The notes under the pieces: model-generated
What the model was told of the DNA's origin: nothing
Databases searched by the model: none
Seen by the model: only the letters and a program-made list of their open reading frames with translations
Virus record (IMG/VR): IMGVR_UViG_3300000292_000047
Direction: 5' to 3' (one strand)
Source of the DNA: a virus
Taxonomy: Duplodnaviria > Heunggongvirae > Uroviricota > Caudoviricetes
DNA length: 48,335 nucleotides
Made by a program: the position numbers and the translations under genes
In this document: positions 1-48,335 of the stretch, piece after piece
Numbering within the stretch: position 1 is the first letter of the stretch
Layout: each line of letters opens with the position of its first letter

Positions 1-118
1 ATCAGATTTCTCCGGTTTAACCAGGGCGGGTATCGCTCGGTTTCGGGTATAACCTTAGGAAATTTTTTCCCACCTGTAAAGCGCTTTTTATATAAATCTA
101 TAATTATATAATTCTATG
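1..118. repeat. Copy A of ~105-bp conserved promoter/5'-leader repeat (minus-strand sense); first 54 bp identical to window end
   Basis: Near-identical to 7517-7640 and 16999-17108; contains ccggagaaatctgATG (SD + start) in minus sense and AT-rich tatataaatctataattatata block. Confidence 0.8.
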
Positions 119-6371: not shown

Positions 6372-6416
6372 TGTCGAGGCGTCCTTATACATTTATATAA
6401 ATATATAATTCTATAT

Positions 6417-6438
6417 ACGGCGGGAGACATCCCGCCGT
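6417..6438 (-). terminator. Hairpin downstream of 6449-7516 gene (candidate terminator)
   Basis: acggcggga-gaca-tcccgccgt, 9-bp stem, followed on minus strand by AT-rich tract. Confidence 0.45.
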
Positions 6439-6448
6439 AGGCTTACTG

Positions 6449-7516
6449 TCAGGCTTTCAATAGCGATTCTTTCAGATATCGGGCATCAGCCAGGGCGTTT
6501 GGCGTAATCTTGCGAACCCATGCATTACGGGTTGGACTCCACTTAAAGGCGCGTGATTTAAGCAGCGAACGAATGTTTGCCTCTGGTTTGCCAGGGAAAT
6601 AAAACAGGATGCGGTTATCCTCTGGATCTATCTCCATAGAAAAGCCGTCGTATTCTTCGCGCTGTGCTCCTGTTACAGACTTGACCGATTCAAGCTCCTT
6701 AATACGGCTCTGTAGTCGTTTGATTTCGGCGTTATTGTTGCTCAGTGCGTATGAAGGGAATCCGATGCGCCCACAGAAATCTCCGGCCAGTAACTCTTTG
6801 GCTTCGCTTTCTGTAAACCTGAGATCGATTAATGCAGAAAGCTGCTGTATTTGGTCTTTTTTGTATTTGCGAATGGCCTTATTTGCGGCCTTCATTTTGA
6901 CGTGTGACTTCATGCAGCCTTGCAGCTTACGAAGCAACTTAAATAGCGCATCAGGATCATCAGACGAAATTCCATTACGACCAACACCTGCGGCTTTGCT
7001 CTCGTAGTGTGATGCTTTACTTTCGCATTCAACAAACGCTTTTCTGAATAACGCATCAGCTTTAGACAAACGGCGGCGATGGCCTTTCGCGCTATAATGG
7101 TCAACTAAAATCGGCTGGCCTAACGGGATCACATCCAACAGGTCATGCGCTCGCTTATGCGCTACCGCACCTTCTTTTCTGGCTTTTTCTGCACGAGCAA
7201 TATATCGGGCAAGACGCGCGTTCTGGCGTTCCTGATAGGTGTTTACGTAATCATCTCCGCGCTGCTGCTGTTCAAGCCATGCTTTGCGCAGATCTTCTGT
7301 TACGTCCACCAGCTCCGCAGGGATACAACCAGTTTGGGCTTCATAAGAGTAACCATCCTCATAGATACGCCCATCGTCTTCAACAAAGAAAAAGGTTTCG
7401 TGCTCATCGCTTTTGACCATACGACCATTAACATGGCGTAATAGGTAGCCAGTATCAGTGCTTAACAGGCTGTTAGGGTTGTTGATCCAGTCAGAAATAA
7501 TTACTTGTTTATTCAT
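6449..7516 (-). CDS. Conserved hypothetical protein driven by leader copy B (possibly DUF3560-like)
   Basis: 355 aa from ATG 7514-7516 (MNKQVIISDW) immediately after leader SD ccggagaaatctg; family assignment from memory only. Confidence 0.55.
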   Translation of the reverse strand: MNKQVIISDWINNPNSLLSTDTGYLLRHVNGRMVKSDEHETFFFVEDDGRIYEDGYSYEAQTGCIPAELVDVTEDLRKAWLEQQQRGDDYVNTYQERQNARLARYIARAEKARKEGAVAHKRAHDLLDVIPLGQPILVDHYSAKGHRRRLSKADALFRKAFVECESKASHYESKAAGVGRNGISSDDPDALFKLLRKLQGCMKSHVKMKAANKAIRKYKKDQIQQLSALIDLRFTESEAKELLAGDFCGRIGFPSYALSNNNAEIKRLQSRIKELESVKSVTGAQREEYDGFSMEIDPEDNRILFYFPGKPEANIRSLLKSRAFKWSPTRNAWVRKITPNALADARYLKESLLKA

Positions 7517-7640
7517 CAGATTTCTCCGGTTTAACCAGGGCGGGTATCGCTCGGTTTCGGGTATAACCATAGGAAATTTTTTCCCACCTGTAAAGCACTT
7601 TTTATATAAATCTATAATTATATATTTATAGATTTTCGAT
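7517..7640. repeat. Copy B of ~105-bp promoter/5'-leader repeat
   Basis: Near-identical to 1-118 and 16999-17108. Confidence 0.85.
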
Positions 7641-9545: not shown

Positions 9546-10036
9546 TCCTCAAGCCTCCCAAGTGCTGAACGCCGGGCGTTGCTAATCTCCTTATGAATCA
9601 GCTCGATATCGCTGGAATCTTTATTCTTAAGCTCCAGCACGGTAATCGCATCACGAACCTCTGAAACGGTTACGTGTGAGTGTTTCCAGCGAGCAATGAA
9701 TCGCGGACCGCGTAGATTGCAACGCTCCGCAGGCATCCCCAGCTCAGAGAAAACCGCTTTCAGCCTTGATAAGCAGTTAACAGGGAGATTCCCTTTGATC
9801 TTGTTCTGCCGAACCGATGTGCCATCGCTACGCTGGCGCTGACGTTCGGCAAAATCTGCCGCCCATTGCTGGACGTTAATCCGGCCTTCCGAATACGCCA
9901 CCAGCAGCGTCAGGTTATCCGCACGAGGGAATCTCTCGAAGCGATACCAGGCACCAATCAGTGATGACGTAAAGCCAAACTTTCTGGCAACACCAATTTG
10001 GCCTCCATTTTCGTCAACCCACTCCTGAAAGGTCAT
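9542..10036 (-). CDS. Putative early regulator (first gene divergent from repressor; Cro/CII position)
   Basis: 164 aa; ATG 10034-10036 with GGAG SD; N-terminal HTH-like GVARKFGFTSSLIGAW. Confidence 0.35.
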   Translation of the reverse strand: MTFQEWVDENGGQIGVARKFGFTSSLIGAWYRFERFPRADNLTLLVAYSEGRINVQQWAADFAERQRQRSDGTSVRQNKIKGNLPVNCLSRLKAVFSELGMPAERCNLRGPRFIARWKHSHVTVSEVRDAITVLELKNKDSSDIELIHKEISNARRSALGRLEE

Positions 10037-10054
10037 TTAACGAACTCCAGTTAA

Positions 10055-10172
10055 ACCACGATATGTGGTATTAAAACCACATATCGTGAGTTTTTCAATG
10101 GGCGAAACAAAAAATAACCTTCTATTTGTGGTCCACCTCTCGTCTTACCATGTGAAAACCACTAAATGTGGT
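10055..10172. promoter_or_regulatory. Immunity operator region with three ACCAC-N5-GTGGT-type sites between divergent genes
   Basis: accacgatatgtggt (10055-10069), accacatatcgtgag (10076-10090), accactaaatgtggt (10158-10172). Confidence 0.6.
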
Positions 10173-10209
10173 AATGTATAAATAACCCACCATTCACGAT
10201 TGATGAGAC

Positions 10210-10866
10210 ATGAAAAGCAACGACGAGAACATCAAGAAAGAAATAGGTCTGCGCATTCAGACTCTACGGAAACAATCCGGCATGACTGCCGGAGATCTCC
10301 AGCAAGTCACTGGAATAGGCTTAAGCACCTTGCAGAACTATGAGGCCGGATTAAGACAACCATCTATACCTGCCATCAAGAAAATCGCGCACGCCCTGAA
10401 AGCATCAGCGCCTTATATCGCGTGCTTAACAGATAACCCGTTCCCACCCCAGAATACTAACGCTCCTGTTATTCCTGGGCTTGTAGCTATAAAAAATGAC
10501 ATAGCATCGCACGCCGGAGAAAAGCCAGTGCTGGCGATAGAACAGGAGATTCTACGAAGCAAGAACATCAACCCATCGTCTCTGTCAGTTCTCCAGAGCA
10601 ACGATGAGTTAATGTCACCAACAATATCCCCTGGCTCCCAAGTCCTGATTAATACAGACGATACAGAGATTCATGAGGGGATCTATGCCCTTGAAGACAG
10701 AAATGGCCTGGTTGTTTTGAGGCACTGTAGAGTCATACCGGGTGACAATGCTGTTATGCTGTCAACCGAAAGGGATGCTGAAATGAACACTAAGCATCTG
10801 AATAACGAGGAATTTAAGCGTTATAAAGTTCTTGGCCGCGTAGTTAGTGTTGTCAACTGGTTATGA
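10210..10866 (+). CDS. CI-type phage repressor (XRE HTH + S24 LexA-like peptidase domain)
   Basis: 218 aa; N-terminal HTH (LQQVTGIGLSTLQNYEAG), C-terminal S24-like region; divergent from early operon. Confidence 0.75.
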   Translation: MKSNDENIKKEIGLRIQTLRKQSGMTAGDLQQVTGIGLSTLQNYEAGLRQPSIPAIKKIAHALKASAPYIACLTDNPFPPQNTNAPVIPGLVAIKNDIASHAGEKPVLAIEQEILRSKNINPSSLSVLQSNDELMSPTISPGSQVLINTDDTEIHEGIYALEDRNGLVVLRHCRVIPGDNAVMLSTERDAEMNTKHLNNEEFKRYKVLGRVVSVVNWL

Positions 10867-11360: not shown

Positions 11361-11460
11361 TGATTATAGATTTATATAATTATATAAAACGCTTTTCATC
11401 CGCCAAAAAGTTGGTTATGCTTACCTCGTTCTATAAATATAGATTTATAGAATTATATAA
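11361..11460. promoter_or_regulatory. AT-rich repeat block upstream of parA (candidate centromere/operator)
   Basis: ttatagatttatataattatataa and ctataaatatagatttatagaattatataa; same motif as in leader repeats. Confidence 0.55.
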
Positions 11461-11483
11461 CCAAACACATGGAGTCTCGACAA

Positions 11484-12137
11484 ATGACTATCTCTGTAGG
11501 TATTTTCAACGGAAAAGGCGGCGTAACCAAATCAACAATTGCCCGTGCTTTAGCAGTTGCTTATGCAAAGGCCGGCTGGAATGTATGCCTGATCGATATG
11601 GATGTGCTTAACGGAACGGTAACGCGTTGGGTACAACGCAGAATGGCCAACAATATCGAACCTGCAATCGCGGCGCAGCCGTGCGGCACGCCATCACAAG
11701 TCCAGAAAATCATCGAATCAGAAGTATACGACCTGGTTATCGTCGATGGCGGTGCCTACGCATCTGAATCAGTACCGAAGCTCTCTGAATTTCTGGATAT
11801 GGTTATTTTGCCAACCAGATTCTCTACCGATGACCTAGAAACCACCGTTAACACAGCTCACGGCATCGTTAAAAAGGGTGTGCCAATCAAGAAAATTTGC
11901 ATGGTGTTCTCAGGCGCGGCTGAAAACGAAGCCGACTACATTGAAGCCCAAGAGTACCTAGCTAATACGCCATACTTTGTTGTCGATAAGTACATTCCCC
12001 ACAAGCCAGCTCTGAGCAAAGCTCAGGATAAGGGCTTAAGCCTCATTGAATGCTCATACGTTGCGCCACGCAAAAAGGCAGACGACGTTATTCAGGGGAT
12101 TATCAACCAGCTTGAGGCTCTGACTACTGCCGCGTAA
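11484..12137 (+). CDS. parA: ParA/ParF-type partition ATPase (alternative ATG at 11469)
   Basis: Deviant Walker A GKGGVTKST; MinD/ParA fold; GGAG SD before ATG 11484. Confidence 0.8.
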   Translation: MTISVGIFNGKGGVTKSTIARALAVAYAKAGWNVCLIDMDVLNGTVTRWVQRRMANNIEPAIAAQPCGTPSQVQKIIESEVYDLVIVDGGAYASESVPKLSEFLDMVILPTRFSTDDLETTVNTAHGIVKKGVPIKKICMVFSGAAENEADYIEAQEYLANTPYFVVDKYIPHKPALSKAQDKGLSLIECSYVAPRKKADDVIQGIINQLEALTTAA

Positions 12138-12168
12138 TATATAATTATAGTTTTATAGATTTATATAA
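12136..12168. promoter_or_regulatory. AT-rich repeat block between parA and parG-like gene
   Basis: atataattatagttttatagatttatata. Confidence 0.5.
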
Positions 12169-12180
12169 GAGGGGATACAC

Positions 12181-12429
12181 ATGGCCGGACCATCAAAACC
12201 ACCAAAGAAGAACAGCAAAGGCGTACCGCCATCGATCGAACAACCGCAGGTTTTCGACCCGACTGAAACGCCAACCAGAACCAAATCAGGTGGGGCACAA
12301 ATGGCGTTTAACGTCGACCCTGAATTTAAACGCGAGTACAAAACGTTCGCCAGCTCAATGGATATGTCATTGAAAGAAGTGCTGACAAAATCTTTTGAGT
12401 TACTCAAGGCTCAATACAACCAGAAGTAA
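12181..12429 (+). CDS. ParG-like ribbon-helix-helix centromere-binding protein
   Basis: 82 aa immediately after ParA; basic unstructured N-terminus then predicted beta-strand/helix segment; AGAGGGG SD. Confidence 0.55.
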   Translation: MAGPSKPPKKNSKGVPPSIEQPQVFDPTETPTRTKSGGAQMAFNVDPEFKREYKTFASSMDMSLKEVLTKSFELLKAQYNQK

Positions 12430-12650: not shown

Positions 12651-12674
12651 TAAAAAAGGCCCCCGAAGGGGCCT
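12651..12674. terminator. Hairpin terminator, usable on minus strand (bidirectional candidate)
   Basis: aggcccc-cgaa-ggggcct perfect stem; A-run on plus gives U-run on minus. Confidence 0.6.
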
Positions 12675-12679
12675 AATCG

Positions 12680-12802
12680 CTACTTGCTGCTAATGTTTAT
12701 CGTCACATTCAGAGCGTTATCAGTAATCTTCCAACCCTCCCCATGTGGCGTAAACAAAGCCCCAGTAACAACGATAAAAATACACATACAGTATTTTTTC
12801 AT
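12680..12802 (-). CDS. Small hydrophobic peptide (40 aa), candidate type I toxin-like or exported peptide
   Basis: MKKYCMCIFIVVTGALFTPHGEGWKITDNALNVTINISSK; ATG inside track ORF 12680-12862; terminator immediately downstream. Confidence 0.3.
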   Translation of the reverse strand: MKKYCMCIFIVVTGALFTPHGEGWKITDNALNVTINISSK

Positions 12803-13200
12803 TGTATGGCCCTTACAGGCCGTTTCACGGCATCCCCACCGACGAAAACAACGCGAGAGCAAGCACGGCTGCTTGTGCTTGCATGTACGGCAACGGAGAA
12901 TCCTCCCCTAAAGTCGGTGCCCGGGTGCGAATCGGCGGGAAGGTCCACAGGTATTTTACGATTATTTTAAGATTAGTAATAGGAAAGAAATTAAACGAAA
13001 AAACTCGTTTATTTTCACAAAATCAGTAACCTACCCACAATCTGTGAGTTTGCAGGCACAACAAGAATCACAATTTTTTGAAGCATAATAGTGGACTATT
13101 ATTACCTTTTGGGTAAAATTAACTTGCTGCTTGTGCTTGCGTGGTTGTTTATACAACGACGTTATGCTGAAAGGACCGCGAATCCGATCAGCACGAAAGA

Positions 13201-13309: not shown

Positions 13310-13392
13310 CACTTTCCGAGCCGTAGCAAAATCTACGGTCGGGATTGGAACCCCGTAGACACAATGGCGCATACCGCGTTAGCGGTTTTTTT
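13310..13392 (+). ncRNA. Candidate small structured RNA ending at intrinsic terminator, upstream of antirepressor operon
   Basis: TTGACA at 13285-13290; hairpins ccgtag/ctacgg; terminator accgc-gtta-gcggt + T7 (13373-13392); no ORF. Confidence 0.3.
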
Positions 13393-13558
13393 ATGCGTAA
13401 AGCACTGCTACACCCAAATTATGGTGGGGCGTGCGGGGGAGTCGTAAGACTCGCCGGTTCGTCATTGTGTCCGGTAGTTCCAACCCTGCACGTCTCACCA
13501 CCCAATGATTGGAACCTGACGGTGGTGAGTATCCTTAACCTTTAAGGGAATCATCACA

Positions 13559-13750
13559 ATGACAAACCTACCCCATGACTATTACGTCAACCTCGTAAAG
13601 ATCCTTCTCAAGAAAGCCTCATACGCCGATAAATTCCGCCTGGCTGAAATCATCGAGCGCGAAGCTATGCGCATCGCCAGCAACGATAACGCTGTTTCTG
13701 ACGCAAAAATCTCCCTCGTAACCAAAGTTGTTATGGGAGGTGCAAAATGA
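13559..13750 (+). CDS. Small protein translationally coupled to antirepressor
   Basis: 63 aa; stop overlaps ant start (ATGA). Confidence 0.45.
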   Translation: MTNLPHDYYVNLVKILLKKASYADKFRLAEIIEREAMRIASNDNAVSDAKISLVTKVVMGGAK

Positions 13751-14898
13751 AAACGCTTCCGATCGTTAACACCCTACAGCCTATCCTGCATAATCAGATT
13801 CCAGTAATCACAACTGAGCTACTCGCCCGCCTTTATGGAACAGAAGCAATCCGTATACAGCAAAATCACCATGAAAATAAAACTCGGTTCATTGAGGGGA
13901 AGCACTTCTTTAAAGCTGTTGGTGATGAACTCAAAAATTTGCGACTAGTTTTAAACGAGTCACAAAATGAGGTGCAAATTTCCCCCAAAACTCGCTCTCT
14001 CATCCTCTGGACAGAACGCGGGGCTGCACGTCACGCCAAAATGCTTGAAACTAACCAAGCGTGGGATGTGTTCGAACGGCTGGAAGACTGCTATTTCAAC
14101 CAGAACGCGCAAACGGCCGCGACCGTTACCGTCTCGCCAAACAATCCTCGTGAGGTTGTCGATACGCTCAACGCCAAACCGATGTTTTACATTAAGGTGT
14201 GCAACAACGAGCCACTCACAACCTCAGCCGATGTTGCCCAGGCATTCAGCACCACAAACAATTCCATCGTTATGGCCATCGATGCGTTACGCATTCCTCG
14301 TACAGCTGCGGCACGTCATTTCTTTAAAGAGCAACGACCGCTGGAAGGAAGCGACCGCGAAATAACAATCTATCGCATGACAAAAGACGGATTTACCTTG
14401 CTCATGGAAAGTATCGACGGTCCAGGCGTGAAAGATATCAAGCTGGCCTACATTGAAGCCTTTAACGCTATCAGCAGCGTGTTAAAAACACAGTACGAGC
14501 GTGATCTGGCTAAACGACTGTACCAGGAAAAAACGATTATCCGCGCGGCAACAGAGCATAATCGGCTATTAACAGAACCGAAATACAGGAAGGAACTAAT
14601 CAAGGAGTTTGACAAGGCAACAGGGAAAACCAAAGCGGCGCTAAATCTGCCAGCAATGACTCAGGAAAATGTGATATCAGCCTTACTTCTTGATCTGCTC
14701 AGAAACGCCAGAGCACTTATCAGCTTTGACGAAAACCTGAATCCTCAGCTCAAGCTACTACCACCGACAGGCAAAGTAGTCGACCAGGCTGATCACAACA
14801 GCATACTCAGCGTACTGGATGCAAACCTGCCAGCCAGGACACTACAGGATCTGATAAAAACATGTGCTGATAAGCTGGCACAGAAGAGCAGACCATAA
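13747..14898 (+). CDS. Antirepressor-type regulatory protein (ORF6N-like N-terminus + Rha domain)
   Basis: 383 aa; ITIYRMTKDGFTLLMESIDGPGVKDIKLAYIEAFN matches Rha pattern; GGAGG SD. Confidence 0.7.
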   Translation: MKTLPIVNTLQPILHNQIPVITTELLARLYGTEAIRIQQNHHENKTRFIEGKHFFKAVGDELKNLRLVLNESQNEVQISPKTRSLILWTERGAARHAKMLETNQAWDVFERLEDCYFNQNAQTAATVTVSPNNPREVVDTLNAKPMFYIKVCNNEPLTTSADVAQAFSTTNNSIVMAIDALRIPRTAAARHFFKEQRPLEGSDREITIYRMTKDGFTLLMESIDGPGVKDIKLAYIEAFNAISSVLKTQYERDLAKRLYQEKTIIRAATEHNRLLTEPKYRKELIKEFDKATGKTKAALNLPAMTQENVISALLLDLLRNARALISFDENLNPQLKLLPPTGKVVDQADHNSILSVLDANLPARTLQDLIKTCADKLAQKSRP

Positions 14899-16610: not shown

Positions 16611-16991
16611 TTACTTAACGAGGAATAAAAATGGTTTATCGTTCGGCGGTGTAATCGGGGCTGGCTCGCTTTTGCTCATGCGATCAGTGTACCAGGCCAA
16701 CTCCTTGTCAAAGTAAGCCTGATTAAAATAGGCCATGAATGTGGTTTCAAATCCATAACGACCGCTAATACGCAGCATCTGATTGCCGTTCTCTGTTTCC
16801 AGATATACCTGGGCACGTTCCTGATTCTCCTTCAGCCAGGTTAAAGCCTCATCGCACGAGGACAAACGATACTCATCATCGTAGCCGTCATCGATGCGGC
16901 TTGAAGAAGAACGGCAAATCACGCCAACAGAACCAGCCAGGATAGTTTGAATTTTAAGGAAAGCGTTTTTGCGGATTTTAATCATGCTCAT
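16611..16991 (-). CDS. Hypothetical protein driven by leader copy C
   Basis: 126 aa; ATG 16989-16991 directly after leader. Confidence 0.55.
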   Translation of the reverse strand: MSMIKIRKNAFLKIQTILAGSVGVICRSSSSRIDDGYDDEYRLSSCDEALTWLKENQERAQVYLETENGNQMLRISGRYGFETTFMAYFNQAYFDKELAWYTDRMSKSEPAPITPPNDKPFLFLVK

Positions 16992-16998
16992 CGGGTTA

Positions 16999-17108
16999 TC
17001 TCCGGTTTAACCAGGGCGAGTATCGCTCGGTTTCGGGCATAACCTTAGGAAATTTTTTCCCACCTGTAAAGCACTTTTTATATAAATCTATAATTATATA
17101 ATTCTATG
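16999..17108. repeat. Copy C of ~105-bp promoter/5'-leader repeat
   Basis: 3 substitutions relative to copy A; SD-proximal end diverged. Confidence 0.85.
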
Positions 17109-18045: not shown

Positions 18046-18309
18046 CTATTTTTGTGACTTTACTCCTGGCATATGGACTTCCCAGCGACGAATCCCCATA
18101 GCTGCGCAAAAATCAGCCACATAATTCAATCCCGCCCATTCGCGGATACCACCACGGGCTTTTTCAATGAAAACGGCAATCCCTTTTTTATTGAGAGCAA
18201 AAAGCCGCCAGCTTTTTGTCACTTCGTCCTGGGTAGCCACAACACAAGTGAAAGCTCCCATGCGATACAGGTCCAAGAACTCTTTGCGTGTTTTGCGTAC
18301 AAGTTCCAT
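18046..18309 (-). CDS. Hypothetical protein (start uncertain)
   Basis: Track start TTG; ATG 18307-18309 has GAGG SD. Confidence 0.35.
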   Translation of the reverse strand: MELVRKTRKEFLDLYRMGAFTCVVATQDEVTKSWRLFALNKKGIAVFIEKARGGIREWAGLNYVADFCAAMGIRRWEVHMPGVKSQK

Positions 18310-18332
18310 AACAAACCTCATTTTTGCATGTT

Positions 18333-18620
18333 TCAAACATCTGTTTTGTTATCAATGAAGATTAACCCTAACCCAGCGAAGTAACACAGCAGCGCCCAGG
18401 CTGCATACGGAATGCTGGATCTGGATGTGGACTCCTTTAACATCTGCCAGTTGCGAACATTGCGACTATCTTTTAAGCCTAGTTTTTTGGCCAACTGCGA
18501 GCCGCTCATTCCGGTCAGGCCAATGACTGCCCGAACTTCTCCACATGTAGGAGATTCCCATTCATCCGCTTTTTTTAAACAAGCCGGATTCAACATTTTT
18601 AAAACAGTATCTTTATCCAT
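18333..18620 (-). CDS. Putative HTH DNA-binding protein
   Basis: ATG 18618-18620 with GGAGA SD; GLTGMSGSQLAKKLGL..RNVRNWQ. Confidence 0.4.
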   Translation of the reverse strand: MDKDTVLKMLNPACLKKADEWESPTCGEVRAVIGLTGMSGSQLAKKLGLKDSRNVRNWQMLKESTSRSSIPYAAWALLCYFAGLGLIFIDNKTDV

Positions 18621-18999
18621 AACCATCTCCATTTATTATATCTACGATGGTAGGAAATCTTTTCCTATGTGGCAATAGAAATTTACTACATTGCGTATAA
18701 GACAAGTTTTCTATGTCTAATAGGAAATGATGTTTCTTACATTTTATCGCGTTCTGATGGCTACTGTGTGCGTATTTATCGACGTTTATTGATAAGGCTC
18801 GCCCCTTCCTCCTGCAAAGCCCGGCCGTAGGCCTTATTTCGGCCTTATATAAATTGATTTTGTATAGTTCGAAACGTGCCGTTTCGAAAAGGATGATCAG
18901 GCTGCTCCATGCCTCCGGCAAGTGCCGGAGGAGGTATATTTGAGCGTAGCGACTCGAACCGGCGCGAGCTTTAGCTCGCTGCAAGGGCGAACATATTCA

Positions 19000-41979: not shown

Positions 41980-42531
41980 TTATTCTTCCTGCTTAATAAA
42001 TCGGGATTCCTGGAGCGCCTGAAGCGCAAAATTAATCTCGTCTTCAATAATGCGCTCGATCTCCCTGGCTGTTTTGCCTTCACAACGGGGAGCTGCTCTT
42101 GGAGCAATACTAAATAAGCGGCTACGCAATTCATTAGCTGCCAGAAATGCATCATCCCTGACCGCATCTTTAGCGATGAGAGAGCCTTCCTTTTCTTCAA
42201 ATTCAAGGCGTTTCAGCTTTGCCTGATAAATTTTTTCTGCGGTCTTAGCCTTGTTGAATTGCACCGCAACACCGGAAGTACCACCAGCTAATCCGGCATC
42301 ATCAGCGGGTAACTCTGGTTGTTCCGAAGATATCCCATGCCCTCTTTTTCCATTTTCAGCAGATACCTCACGACCAACCTGTCGGCTCGCTTCATAAGCC
42401 GCACTGGCTTTATCAAAATCCAGCTTGCCGCTTTTCAGCACTGGAATGCGACCGGAACGACAGAGCTTCGTAACCATTGCCGGAGAAATACCTTTCCGGC
42501 GGGCAAACTCTGACTTACTGACGATGGCCAT
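41980..42531 (-). CDS. Terminase small subunit (HTH)
   Basis: Track start TTG; ATG at 42529-42531; N-terminal HTH SKSEFARRKGISPAMVTKL. Confidence 0.55.
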   Translation of the reverse strand: MAIVSKSEFARRKGISPAMVTKLCRSGRIPVLKSGKLDFDKASAAYEASRQVGREVSAENGKRGHGISSEQPELPADDAGLAGGTSGVAVQFNKAKTAEKIYQAKLKRLEFEEKEGSLIAKDAVRDDAFLAANELRSRLFSIAPRAAPRCEGKTAREIERIIEDEINFALQALQESRFIKQEE

Positions 42532-43121
42532 TACTTGCAACCATTAGCAAGATACTGAACAAATCCCTCATGCGTTTCATGCGCGTCGTGGTACTGACGA
42601 TAAACATCCAGCAACAATGCAATTTCCATATCCGTCGCGGGAATACGTTCTTTATCAATAGCCAGGTACTTAATTTGAACAACAGGGGAAGAATTATCGT
42701 CTTCTTCCTGCGGCTGTTCATCGCTTAACATTTCGTCAAGCTCTGCATCATTAAACCCAAGCAGATCAATATCAAAATCATCATCCATTAACTCTTTGAC
42801 TTCTTCGGCCAGAAGCTGCATATCCCAGCCAGCATTTAAGGCCAGCTTGTTATCTGCAATCCTGTAAGCCTTCTTCTGTTTTTCAGAAAGGTTACTCAAC
42901 CGAATCGCCGGAACTTTATCCATTTCCAGAATTTCGGCTGCTGCAAGCCGACCATGCCCCGCAATCAGTTCATTCTTTTCATCGATCAGCACAGGATTAG
43001 TGAAACCGAACTCACGGATACTGTTCACCAACTGTTCAACTTGCTCATCTGAATGAGTCCGTGAATTTTTGGCATATCTGAGCAGCTTACCGACTGGTAA
43101 ATATTCGATTTTTAGAGTCAT
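42531..43121 (-). CDS. ParB-like nuclease domain protein
   Basis: 196 aa; ParB N-terminal fold motifs (LIAGHGRLAAA); paralog of 45788-46411. Confidence 0.7.
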   Translation of the reverse strand: MTLKIEYLPVGKLLRYAKNSRTHSDEQVEQLVNSIREFGFTNPVLIDEKNELIAGHGRLAAAEILEMDKVPAIRLSNLSEKQKKAYRIADNKLALNAGWDMQLLAEEVKELMDDDFDIDLLGFNDAELDEMLSDEQPQEEDDNSSPVVQIKYLAIDKERIPATDMEIALLLDVYRQYHDAHETHEGFVQYLANGCK

Positions 43122-44414: not shown

Positions 44415-45788
44415 CTACTTAATCAACGGCCGGAAAGCCGCCAGCACATCATCAGATCGTCCGATTGTTGAACCACCAGGCAACGGCAACTCAAACTCAA
44501 AACGAACAGCTTTCTCCAGACTCTCCCAGCGAAGAGAATCATCGTTAATAACGTGCAAATACCAGCTCTTACAGTTGAATATTGACCGCTTAATCCTGAA
44601 ACCATGTACACGACACAACTGCTTCACTTCATCATCAGAGTGAAACTTCTGGTAAAACCAGTGCCCCTTCCGGTACAACGCGGTAAAACCGTTATGATCA
44701 ATAAAATAAAGCCGGCTTTTGGAACTCGCCGCTTGTGTTTGCTTCAGGACTGTTTCCAGCTCTCCACGGCTACGACCAGAAAAGAATATTGACCCACCAG
44801 CTTTACACAGGCCTTTCAGAACCGTCAGAACAGACCATTCAGCCTCGACACTATCGACCGAGTTCAAAACGCTATCGCAAATCACGTAGTCGTAACGCCC
44901 TCGCGTTTTTAAGTCGTCCACCAGCGTATCAATCATCCGGTTTGTTGCGGTCCTATCCAGAGTGTTTCCAGCGCCCTTACGGCGGAAAAGCTCGAGATCA
45001 TGCAGGTTATATCCCTTTGCCCTGAGCATTCGCGCGTAGTCTCCCTGCCCCGAACCAAAATCAATTCCTCTTGGCGTCTTGGCAATGATCGGGAGGATCA
45101 ACGACTCATACAGGTTTGATTTCAGGCTGCCACCATTACGCAACCGCATAAGCTGCGCATACGTCTGGATGTATGTTGTTTTCTCCAGATGAGAATACTC
45201 AAATACACCATAAGTTTTATTCAGATAACTTTGGTATTTTTCCTTCTCAACATCAGGGATCACAAACACCGTTAGCGGTGTGCGCGTCATTTTCGCTGCT
45301 AATGCATACTGAGCACAGTGAATAACCTCACCAGACTGAGTAGCAACACAACCACCCCACGGACCATACTTGATAACCAGTTCCGCTATGTTCTTTCGAA
45401 CATATGCCATTTTCGCGCGCATATTGCCTGAGATCTGGCTTGCCGATACCTGAACAAAACCATGCTTATCTTCCAGACCGGACACCCTGCAACGCTCATC
45501 TCCGCTATCAAAATCCGTTCCGTTATGCAGTTGGTTAAACCGTACTTCGTCGTATACCGTCGTTTCACAGGGCAACACATACACCGCAGCACGCGTTATT
45601 CCCAACTTACGTAGCGCCTTCGTCCTTTGGTGTCCCGCCACCAGCAAATCGCCGCGCACTATCAATGGCTTCACAAGCCCCAGCTCCCTGACGCTTTCCG
45701 CCAGCCTCGCAAGATCATCCTCACCGATAAAACGCGGGTTATATTCCGCGCCGCGTAGGTGCGTTATGTCGTAATTCAGGTGAAGCAT
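44415..45788 (-). CDS. ParB-like domain fused to class I SAM-dependent methyltransferase
   Basis: N-terminal ParB-like region (LVAGHQRTKAL); C-terminal GIDFGSGQGDYA motif I; ATG 45786-45788 with GGAGG SD, TGATG coupling to upstream gene. Confidence 0.7.
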   Translation of the reverse strand: MLHLNYDITHLRGAEYNPRFIGEDDLARLAESVRELGLVKPLIVRGDLLVAGHQRTKALRKLGITRAAVYVLPCETTVYDEVRFNQLHNGTDFDSGDERCRVSGLEDKHGFVQVSASQISGNMRAKMAYVRKNIAELVIKYGPWGGCVATQSGEVIHCAQYALAAKMTRTPLTVFVIPDVEKEKYQSYLNKTYGVFEYSHLEKTTYIQTYAQLMRLRNGGSLKSNLYESLILPIIAKTPRGIDFGSGQGDYARMLRAKGYNLHDLELFRRKGAGNTLDRTATNRMIDTLVDDLKTRGRYDYVICDSVLNSVDSVEAEWSVLTVLKGLCKAGGSIFFSGRSRGELETVLKQTQAASSKSRLYFIDHNGFTALYRKGHWFYQKFHSDDEVKQLCRVHGFRIKRSIFNCKSWYLHVINDDSLRWESLEKAVRFEFELPLPGGSTIGRSDDVLAAFRPLIK

Positions 45789-46411
45789 CAGCACACCTCC
45801 CCAGCCAGCAATGCGGATACAAATCCGATATAGCTGCCATTATCATCAACATAACGAGACACCGCGCAGTCAAAACGATCCGCTTCCTCATCCGTTGCCG
45901 GGATTTTATGACCTCCAAATGACAGGTACTGAACTTTTACGCCTGATTTGGCCTCATCCTTCTCAAATGGGATATCCATACCCTCTGTGTCATCGTAGAC
46001 CGCCGCACTCAATAAGTTATCCAGTTCGCGCTGAGTAAAACCAATTGAGTCCAGAGCAAAATCATCGGCCGCAAGATCTGCAAGCTCCGCGCTTAACAAC
46101 TCTTCATCCCAACCAGCATTCAGCGGAATACGGTTGTCGGCCAGACGATATGCCTTCTTCTGATTCTCCGTTAGCCCAGCCAGAACAATGCAGGGAACAT
46201 CATCCATCCCCAACTGAGTGGCCGCAGCAATTCGACCATGACCAGCAATTACAACGTTGTTCTCGTCTATCAGGATCGGATTAGTCCATCCGTACTCCTG
46301 TATGCTGGCAACAATCTGATCTACCTGCTCCACGGAGTGTGTGCGAGCGTTCTTTTCATAACCAATCAACACAGAAAGTGGTAAAGAAACCACATTAAGA
46401 TGTTTTGTCAT
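45788..46411 (-). CDS. ParB-like nuclease domain protein
   Basis: 207 aa; VIAGHGRIAAA; shares C-terminal region with 42531-43121. Confidence 0.7.
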   Translation of the reverse strand: MTKHLNVVSLPLSVLIGYEKNARTHSVEQVDQIVASIQEYGWTNPILIDENNVVIAGHGRIAAATQLGMDDVPCIVLAGLTENQKKAYRLADNRIPLNAGWDEELLSAELADLAADDFALDSIGFTQRELDNLLSAAVYDDTEGMDIPFEKDEAKSGVKVQYLSFGGHKIPATDEEADRFDCAVSRYVDDNGSYIGFVSALLAGEVC

Positions 46412-47742: not shown

Positions 47743-47816
47743 CCCATGTTCTCCTTTGTCTGGATGTAAAAAAGCCCCGGCAATTGCCGAGGCTCGTTGT
47801 TCGTTATCGTTACGGT

Positions 47817-48014
47817 TTAATGCTCGCGTCGTCCGGCGACAACTTCGGATTTGTATTTCAGGTCGCCCAGCAAGAATTGCAGTTTAAGCATCTTTGCCGC
47901 CGTGTAGTTCCCTGATTCCACAACCTCTTTCATGAGGTCATAAACGGCCGCTACATCATCAGCCAGGAACTCTTTGCGTTGCTGCTCAGTCGCACGTTTG
48001 AAGGAAATACGCAT
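47817..48014 (-). CDS. Hypothetical protein
   Basis: 65 aa from ATG 48012-48014; TGATG coupling to upstream gene. Confidence 0.4.
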   Translation of the reverse strand: MRISFKRATEQQRKEFLADDVAAVYDLMKEVVESGNYTAAKMLKLQFLLGDLKYKSEVVAGRREH

Positions 48015-48283
48015 CACTCATCATCTCCTGCCGCACATACAACCTCACAAAAAAAATCAGCAGAATGTTTCTCCTTGAACGAATGACGCTCAAAACCGCA
48101 CTCAATATCAGGCGCAAAAACATCCACCACATACGGTCTTTCAGAATGTTTGTTTTCCCAACGATAAACCGTAGTGACGTTGAAATGTTTTAACGCTTCA
48201 CGGAACTCAACGCTGCCCGTCAGGTTTTTTGAGGTCAGGTATTGCAGGAGGTTTTTTACTACTTCACGGTCTTGTACTTTCAT
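48014..48283 (-). CDS. Hypothetical protein, first gene behind leader copy A/D
   Basis: 89 aa; ATG 48281-48283 directly after ccggagaaatctg. Confidence 0.5.
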   Translation of the reverse strand: MKVQDREVVKNLLQYLTSKNLTGSVEFREALKHFNVTTVYRWENKHSERPYVVDVFAPDIECGFERHSFKEKHSADFFCEVVCAAGDDE

Positions 48284-48335
48284 CAGATTTCTCCGGTTTA
48301 ACCAGGGCGGGTATCGCTCGGTTTCGGGTATAACC
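48282..48335. repeat. Copy D of leader repeat, identical to window positions 1-54
   Basis: 54/54 identity with window start. Confidence 0.9.

Follow-up and report, generated by a model that had tools for sequence, protein, structure and literature searches.

In the IncP-1 plasmid RP4, operons repressed by KorC and KorA have very low basal levels and show the strongest induction in fresh transconjugants, where klcA was induced 224-fold and the kle genes 22-50-fold, an effect attributed to missing repressors (PMC7314908). In the IncW plasmid R388, tight negative feedback leads to transcriptional overshoot on entry, and maintenance promoters are under joint repression by the partition protein StbA and by ArdK, a helix-turn-helix (HTH) repressor (PMC3937220). 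A CUP-repeat/ArdK regulon is found in the leading region of the IncN plasmid pKM101 (PMC6289460). Here we analyzed the IMG/VR virus record IMGVR_UViG_3300000292_000047 (48,335 nucleotides, the whole stretch being called the window), a myovirus-type phage-plasmid. It contains three near-identical promoter-leader cassettes, L1, L2, and L3, which are homologous, as judged from alignments, to the promoter-operator-5' untranslated region (5'UTR) of IncP-1 klcA and kleA (kilC/kilE) and are likely repressed by a KorC homologue of the element itself.

Leader cassettes and the KorC-like repressor

A 39-nt leader core was found on the minus strand at 7523-7561, 16999-17037, and 48290-48328, with 0 occurrences expected by chance. 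A further match, at 9-47, duplicates the copy at 48290-48328 through the assembly overlap. Bases 1-54 of the window are repeated identically as 48282-48335, which makes it a circular contig with a length of 48,281 bp, and this 54-nt overlap lies in L3, i.e., the assembly was closed inside the repeated leader. The same three leader-gene junctions were found in two complete relatives, plasmid NZ_LR130559 and Yersinia phage OR545054, indicating that the join across the window ends is real. The three cassettes align over ~116 nt with 92-97% identity, and the 3' end of each consists of GGAGA, a spacer of 5-7 nt, and the ATG of an open reading frame (ORF) of 355, 126, or 89 amino acids (aa). The core, the alignment, and these GGAGA-ATG junctions confirmed the original prediction, made from the letters of the window, that near-identical leaders precede the 355-aa (6449-7516), 126-aa (16611-16991), and 89-aa (48014-48283) genes. 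The cassettes and the gene of the KorC homologue are located as follows.

7517-7634, minus strand: L1 cassette, with array 7601-7634, -35 box TTTACA 7594-7589, palindrome 7570-7586, -10 box TATGGT 7571-7566, a ~45-nt 5'UTR with a stem-loop (from folding), and a GGAGA Shine-Dalgarno sequence
16992-17108, minus strand: L2 cassette, with array 17077-17108, -35 box 17070-17065, palindrome 17046-17062, -10 box TAAGGT 17047-17042, and 5'UTR
1-118, minus strand: L3 cassette, with array 87-118, -35 box 80-75, palindrome 56-72, and -10 box TAAGGT 57-52; its 5'UTR runs on to the ATG at 48283, bases 1-54 being the DNA of 48282-48335
18333-18632, minus strand: korC-like gene for a 99-aa protein with an XRE-type helix-turn-helix, between RepA and HigBA
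18647-18675, minus strand: korC-like promoter, TTGCCA-17-TACCAT, with the perfect palindrome TAGGAAAAGATTTCCTA (18651-18667) in the spacer

From 5' to 3', each cassette contains three to four tandem 8-bp TATAKAWT units, AAAGTGC, the -35 box TTTACA, a 17-nt spacer with TGGGAAAAAATTTCCTA, a -10 box TAWGGT, the ~45-nt 5'UTR, GGAGA, and ATG. The last two bases of the palindrome are the initial TA of the -10 box. A 373-aa ORF from 7570 was rejected as a gene, its start falling within the L1 -10 box.

The 17-bp palindrome filling the -35/-10 spacer has the form T(G/A)GGAAA-N3-TTTCCTA. Allowing up to two mismatches to TAGGAAA-N3-TTTCCTA, the window contains four sites against 0.17 expected, namely the three leaders and the promoter of the 99-aa gene, all in identical register to the -35 and -10 boxes. 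The operator varies together at these places: in a diverged relative (L024, ~70% protein identity), both the leaders and the HTH-gene promoter have TAGGAAA(ATA/TAT)TTTCCTA, the orthologous HTH gene having TAGGAAATATTTTCCTA in its promoter and the leaders carrying the matching variant.

By homology, the 99-aa protein is a KorC-family repressor. A tblastn search against plasmids showed 50-51% identity to genes annotated korC/KorC on IncP-1 plasmids, and BLASTP against pAKD15 KorC gave 51% identity over 80 aa (E 6e-22). Close homologues are few (n = 16). The most distant of them (52% identity) is encoded on an IncP-like contig with the gene order klcA-klcB-(homologue)-kleE-korA-incC-korB, i.e., in the korC slot.

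The relationship extends to the promoters. Before klcA and kleA, pAKD15 has the KorA operator GTTTAGCTAAA, followed by GTGCTTGACAGGT, TAGGGCATTTTGCCCTA, ATAT, a short hairpin, and ACCGGAGAAAGTCCGATG. The window leaders were identical to these klcA/kleA promoters at 60-68 of ~95 nt (z = 6.8-9.3), and 0 of 500 shuffles matched the observed alignment score. The corresponding blocks were the -35 context, the palindrome position, its -10 overlap, the 5'UTR stem-loop, and the translation-start region. At the sequence level, both TGGGAAAAAATTTCCTA of the three leaders and TAGGAAAAGATTTCCTA of the korC promoter are in the register of TAGGGCATTTTGCCCTA in klcAp and kleAp. Two base pairs of the 5'UTR stem-loop change on both sides between lineages, which is no more than suggestive.

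The closest described system is therefore the KorC branch of IncP-1 RK2/RP4 (the klcA, kleA, and kleC promoters), which shares with the window a repressor 51-52% identical, a 17-bp spacer palindrome with TAGG...CCTA ends that overlaps the -10 box, the promoter core (AAAGTGCTTGACAGGT vs AAAGTGCTTTACAGGT), a 5'UTR stem-loop, and an ACCGGAGAAA...GATG start region. Both systems also have several near-identical promoters per replicon and a second operator, here putative, directly upstream of the -35 box. In contrast to IncP-1, the host here is a contractile-tailed phage-plasmid with an IncFII-type RepA rather than a conjugative plasmid, the inner operator bases are GGAAA rather than GGGCA, an 8-bp AT-rich repeat array replaces the KorA operator, korC has its own promoter, predicted to be autoregulated, rather than lying inside a klcA operon, and the cargo is unrelated to KlcA/B or KleA-F. 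The phage-plasmid host, the arrays in place of the KorA operator, and the wholly different cargo set the window apart from all KorC regulons that we found described, and among the papers searched there was none linking KorC with phage-plasmids in such a way.

The ArdK/StbA regulon of R388 and the regulon of pKM101 are similar to the system proposed here in their strong promoters, common operator, plasmid-encoded HTH repressor, and entry overshoot. The R388 promoters are also co-repressed by StbA, a DNA-binding protein of the partition system, as may happen here through a partition protein, and the IncW plasmid pMAK3 carries a DUF3560 gene in the corresponding maintenance/establishment block. 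However, both are conjugative plasmids, and no homology of repressor or operator sequences to them was found here, so that the link consists of an analogous circuit design and a cargo family in common.

The cassettes were conserved beyond the genes that follow them. In Klebsiella, Enterobacter, and metagenome relatives, the proteins are only ~70% identical, but the cassette is still ~90% conserved. Lineage-specific variants, e.g., TAGGAAAATATTTCCTA and AACCAGAAACC, are common to all copies of one genome. Together, these patterns show concerted evolution under constraint. A scan of a genome collection for the leader core gave only chance matches in unrelated phyla. Control of the shared 5'UTR by a trans antisense RNA was rejected; no complementary stretch of at least 12 nt was found elsewhere in the window. 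Rfam matches in the window were C4, isrK, ryfA, and one tRNA, none of them at the leaders.

A 96-aa ORF (18046-18336, minus strand) overlaps the stop of the korC-like gene, with which it is probably co-transcribed. It has no family match and is absent at the matching position in L024.

Terminator-bounded units and their cargo

Each cassette is predicted to drive a short unit that ends in a terminator: the DUF3560 gene alone behind L1, the 126-aa gene alone behind L2, and the 89-aa and 66-aa genes behind L3. The genes and terminators of these units are listed below.

6449-7516, minus strand: cargo 1, 355-aa DUF3560 protein (PF12083), behind L1
6417-6438, minus strand: GC-rich hairpin ACGGCGGGAGACATCCCGCCGT plus A/T-rich tract, read from the sequence directly after the DUF3560 stop; probable terminator closing the L1 unit
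16611-16991, minus strand: cargo 2, 126-aa protein without known domain, behind L2
16576-16602: palindromic hairpin with a 12-bp stem, located where the 126-aa and 141-aa genes converge; it probably terminates transcription in both directions and closes the L2 unit
47817-48283, minus strand: cargo 3, 89-aa protein (48014-48283) and overlapping 66-aa protein (47817-48017), both without known domain
47772-47795, minus strand: strong intrinsic terminator after the 66-aa gene, with a 10-bp stem, 7 GC pairs, and a T-run

The hairpin at 6417-6438, whose T-run is interrupted, was unlisted by the terminator scan. The terminator at 47772-47795 closes the L3 unit ahead of three further genes (99, 70, and 54 aa), and a second strong intrinsic terminator (47096-47076) lies behind the 54-aa membrane gene. 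The third leader had been proposed to head an operon running through small membrane proteins into the ParB/methyltransferase genes. Because these two strong terminators (47795-47772 and 47096-47076) intervene, the membrane-protein and ParB/methyltransferase genes are not leader-driven by simple reading. The 89-aa gene remained the first gene behind the third copy, and its unit was reduced, by sequence, to the 89-aa and 66-aa genes.

The window encodes three separate proteins with ParB/Srx N-terminal domains (42531-43121, 44415-45794, and 45788-46411) just upstream of the terminase genes, one of which is fused to a methyltransferase. An MT-A70 methyltransferase gene (114-701) ends directly at the L3 cassette. 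This ParB/methyltransferase content recalls leading regions; none of it lies downstream of a leader without an intervening terminator.

Cargo 1 had been described as possibly DUF3560-like, and this assignment held: PF12083 matched residues 94-216 at 108.2 bits, above the Pfam gathering cut-off of 27.2 (E 3.7e-31). An AlphaFold2 model of the 355-aa protein (mean predicted local distance difference test score, pLDDT, 90.9) starts with a beta domain, continues with long helical hairpins, and ends in an alpha/beta domain. Across 732 DUF3560 homologues, the conserved core spans residues ~93-355 with invariant loops, e.g., GQPILVGHHS. Some relatives are fused to ArdC-N and to the polyvalent-protein domains LPD29/LPD30; ArdC-N binds single-stranded DNA (ssDNA), and the background of polyvalent-protein domains has been described (PMC5512222).

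Homologues of the DUF3560 protein occur in 422 plasmids, 231 of which are conjugative. Their gene is located between ardC and ssb in the IncW plasmid pMAK3 and after kleA in a PromA-type plasmid. In an F-like leading region, the SLT/tra-proximal end is occupied by a full-length homologue with 54% identity; psiB, psiA, ssb, and genes for an antirestriction protein and a ParB-like protein are found in the same region. A DUF3560 protein of pO157 has been listed among genes including those for ssb, an antirestriction protein, and a DNA methylase (PMC11125564). Neither Foldseek against the PDB nor a PDB sequence-profile search gave a match that would indicate function, and a viral library search returned uncharacterised homologues only. 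Judging from these contexts, the DUF3560 protein is probably a DNA-binding establishment or anti-defence factor.

On a Dickeya sp. contig (AOOH01000057, L034; 9860-11240), a DUF3560 gene and the adjoining LPD29 gene each lie behind their own copy of a different repeated promoter-leader with the palindrome ACATATTAWAATATGTAT in the spacer and a common start region GGGCCGGTCGGCCAGGAG. This unrelated element appears to follow the same design principle with another operator.

A full HMMER profile search recovered the 126-aa family in 36 clusters among 1.84 billion representatives, with 0 Pfam domains; the family is largely confined to the present phage-plasmid group. Its interpretation as a lipoprotein or exclusion protein was rejected, since most relatives have Ser in place of Cys26 and the conserved motif at the N-terminus is not a signal sequence. 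For the 89-aa and 66-aa proteins, the only matches were PHROGs of unknown function. NCBIfam was uninformative for all cargo, and Pfam searches of ten further early/maintenance ORFs gave nothing.

The leader-driven genes had also been called accessory. This description fits only in part, since variation is limited to the first gene behind the third copy. Across the relatives compared, L1 constantly precedes DUF3560 and L2 the 126-aa gene, including in diverged relatives, while the gene directly behind L3 encodes 89, 97, or 76 aa, or a 73-aa deletion-fusion in Yersinia phages. In Yersinia phage vB_YpM_41 (L001 44143), this 73-aa fusion joins the first residues of the 89-aa protein to the 66-aa protein, so that a viable phage can do without most of the 89-aa gene.

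Control of the leaders and competing explanations

We consider it likely that the three leaders are KorC-type cassettes repressed by the element's own KorC homologue, giving a burst of expression at entry and low expression in the prophage. The 99-aa protein would bind the 17-bp palindrome in the spacer and repress the three cassettes as well as the promoter of its own gene. Upon injection into a KorC-free cell, the three promoters would fire together until new KorC builds up, a phage equivalent of zygotic induction, and they would be kept low in the established plasmid prophage. The promoter boxes have the optimal spacing of 17 bp, and an operator placed between them indicates a repressor rather than an activator arrangement. 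The cargo would most likely act on incoming DNA or on host defences during establishment. Co-regulation of the leader-driven genes at one stage, after entry or in establishment, had been suggested before. It stands as the best reading because of the shared operator, the klc/kle homology, the zygotic induction of RP4, and the DUF3560 context, although the extent of the operon behind the third copy had been overstated.

A second layer of control may act through the AT-rich arrays. The TATAKAWT motif has 32 matches in the window against 2.2 expected, and arrays of at least three such 8-mers occur at eight intergenic places against 0 in shuffles; they are listed here together with the partition module:

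87-118, 7601-7634, and 17077-17108: leader arrays, just upstream of each -35 box
11363-11388 and 11438-11461: parA arrays, on both sides of the parA promoter
12138-12169: third par array, between parA and the gene of its 82-aa partner
6386-6415 and 1222-1255: further arrays, before a 100-aa gene and before the tRNA, respectively
11363-12429, plus strand: partition module, with ParA (11469-12137) and the 82-aa ParG-like protein (12181-12429)

The array positions are conserved in another diverged relative (L003, ~70% protein identity), and in the leaders the array occupies the position of the KorA operator (OA). Apart from those around the parA promoter, the arrays are placed at five other promoters or terminators, and the eight may constitute a dispersed centromere/operator set. 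Profile scans found ParA domains in the 11469-12137 product, and sequence and profile searches found no family match for its 82-aa partner. In a single-sequence AlphaFold2 model of the latter, residues 1-46 have no regular secondary structure, residues 47-59 and 62-81 form helices with pLDDT ~91-92 over residues 51-80, and no strand is assigned in the monomer. A disordered half followed by two helices is, at the level of this model, compatible with a ParG-like ribbon-helix-helix centromere binder, and the module may be a type Ib partition system, in which a small Walker-type ParA and a partner of this kind go with repeats upstream of parA. The ribbon-helix-helix proteins omega and ParG are both centromere binders and repressors, and in the phage-plasmid N15 dispersed partition sites influence phage gene expression. 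The window resembles these systems in having one type of repeat array at the par operon and at other promoters, and in its small ParA partner, modelled with a disordered tail before a helix-helix core and predicted to bind the arrays. With moderate confidence, we regard it as the candidate second repressor, which would bind the arrays upstream of the -35 boxes. Alternatively, the arrays may be bound by host nucleoid proteins or have a simple UP-element effect.

Several observations weigh against an entry burst under KorC control. The predicted repression and its timing both derive from homology. The -10 boxes are weak: TAAGGT of L2 and L3 matches at three of six positions, and only L1 passed the promoter scan (9/12 match). 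No obvious terminator lies upstream of L1 and L3, which sit in long co-directional lytic gene arrays, and their cargo could also come from lytic read-through; upstream of L2 is the terminator of the HigA gene (17140-17118). BLASTP found no similarity between the cargo and KlcA, KlcB, KleA, KleE, or KleF, and Pfam gave no Antirestrict or KleE match for it. In a PADLOC search, no leader-driven protein matched a defence family, the only matches being ParB-domain proteins to a methyltransferase model. Finally, the KorA operator GTTTAGCTAAAC has two two-mismatch sites in the window against 2.2 expected, neither near a leader, and the subset of ORFs whose proteins were scanned gave no KorA homologue (Pfam KORA); the second control layer is thus a conjecture.

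A different explanation is that these are "moron"-type promoters of the lysogenic phase, with KorC setting a steady low level and the cargo serving the lysogen, e.g., by excluding superinfecting phages or modulating the host. The plasmid-maintenance block contains L2 and the korC-like gene beside RepA and HigBA, and the gene directly after L3 varies, as is common for morons. Moreover, autoregulated repressors give a non-zero steady state, and in RA3 klcA transcription persists under KorC (PMC7414963). However, the homologous RP4 promoters have among the lowest basal levels and the biggest entry bursts, the relatives of DUF3560 sit in leading/establishment regions, and the 126-aa protein, with its unconserved Cys26, is neither a lipoprotein nor an evident membrane protein. 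The lack of PADLOC matches among the cargo also counts against a role in the lysogen, and we regard this explanation as unlikely.

Even less probable is that the leaders serve as promoters of the middle or late lytic phase, which a phage activator would turn on by binding the arrays, with the cargo acting in virion production. The arrays are indeed placed where class I/II activators bind, next to weak -10 boxes, and L1 and L3 lie in a long minus-strand run leading from early genes to lysis, terminase, head, and tail genes. Against this, the operator in the 17-bp-spaced promoter is arranged for repression and is common to the korC-like promoter. The cassette also has its homologues among plasmid promoters that are repressed, arrays are found on both sides of the parA promoter as well, and L2 belongs to the maintenance block. 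Moreover, every unit is closed by a terminator.

The concerted evolution of the copies, which share lineage-specific variants within a genome, would also be expected of passive duplications kept alike by gene conversion and offering merely a good promoter and ribosome-binding site. We consider this very improbable, given that the cassette is far more conserved across lineages than the ~70%-identical proteins that it drives, that the operator also occurs, co-varying, in the non-repeated korC promoter, and that the homology reaches promoters of IncP-1 plasmids whose operators are known. The single-strand promoters known as Frpo/ssi from the F plasmid, which work only on ssDNA as it enters, offer a thematic parallel in their repetition before leading-region-type genes (DUF3560, ParB-methylase) but have a negligible chance of explaining the leaders, since phage DNA enters double-stranded, an ordinary double-stranded sigma-70 promoter is present, and ssDNA folds of both strands gave only short local hairpins (-15 kcal/mol; z -2.2 and -2.6) with no long stem juxtaposing the -35 and -10 boxes.

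A KorC-type regulon in a phage-plasmid indicates that a virus whose DNA is injected has establishment circuitry in common with conjugative plasmids, as well as at least one gene family of their leading regions. For the widespread DUF3560 family, the element offers a compact, testable system of three short units and one repressor, in phages isolated on Yersinia pestis, and it may reveal which functions any replicon requires within minutes of entering a cell. A broader proposal can be made only tentatively, and its parts together are rather doubtful: a tailed phage may have adopted from conjugative plasmids the circuit behind zygotic induction, with KorC and klc/kle-type promoters, for a small set of entry effectors; DUF3560, which hundreds of conjugative plasmids carry, often next to ssb or ardC or in fusion with ArdC-N, may represent a new class of DNA-binding anti-defence/establishment proteins, and the partition protein may also silence the promoters through the arrays, which would couple segregation to silencing.

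The phage-plasmid and its other regulatory loci

Phage-plasmids are increasingly recognized in clinical Enterobacteriaceae. According to the RefSeq annotation of NZ_LR130559 and our profile scans, the gene content includes contractile tail, head, terminase, and lysis genes, the regulators being a cI-like repressor and a C4-RNA/antirepressor module, and the maintenance genes an IncFII-type RepA, ParA, and the HigBA toxin-antitoxin pair. The combination of contractile-tail phage genes with RepA, ParA, and HigBA identifies the element as a phage-plasmid. Yersinia phages vB_YpM_39/41/44 are 99% identical to the window, and more than 60 non-mobilizable E. coli plasmids of ~48 kb are near-identical to it. 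E. coli ATCC 25922 has such a near-identical plasmid, NZ_CP009073 (48,488 bp), in which the cassettes are present. The element was found in 74 of 5,426 complete E. coli genomes, nearly always plasmid-borne, and the median number of leader copies in these genomes was three. The phage-plasmid group pSLy3 was ruled out as this element, being a ~100-kb group of the SSU5 supergroup.

The cI-like repressor (10210-10866) was considered as the leader regulator and rejected; its switch region uses ACCAC...GTGGT operators. This divergent switch region (10036-10210), between the cI-like gene and an early leftward operon, contains three palindromes of the AAACCAC-N5-6-GTGGT type, an operator set that differs from that of the leaders.

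A P1-like immI-type module was found at 13320-14898 on the plus strand. It starts with Rfam matches to isrK (13320-13392) and the C4 antisense RNA (13417-13505), and C4 is followed by a 63-aa ORF and then by a 383-aa protein with ORF6N and Rha domains, a likely antirepressor. Just downstream of the partition genes, the minus strand has a full-length match to the ryfA RNA family (12652-12948, 141.8 bits), which on a phage-plasmid may be a type I toxin-like stabilisation locus.

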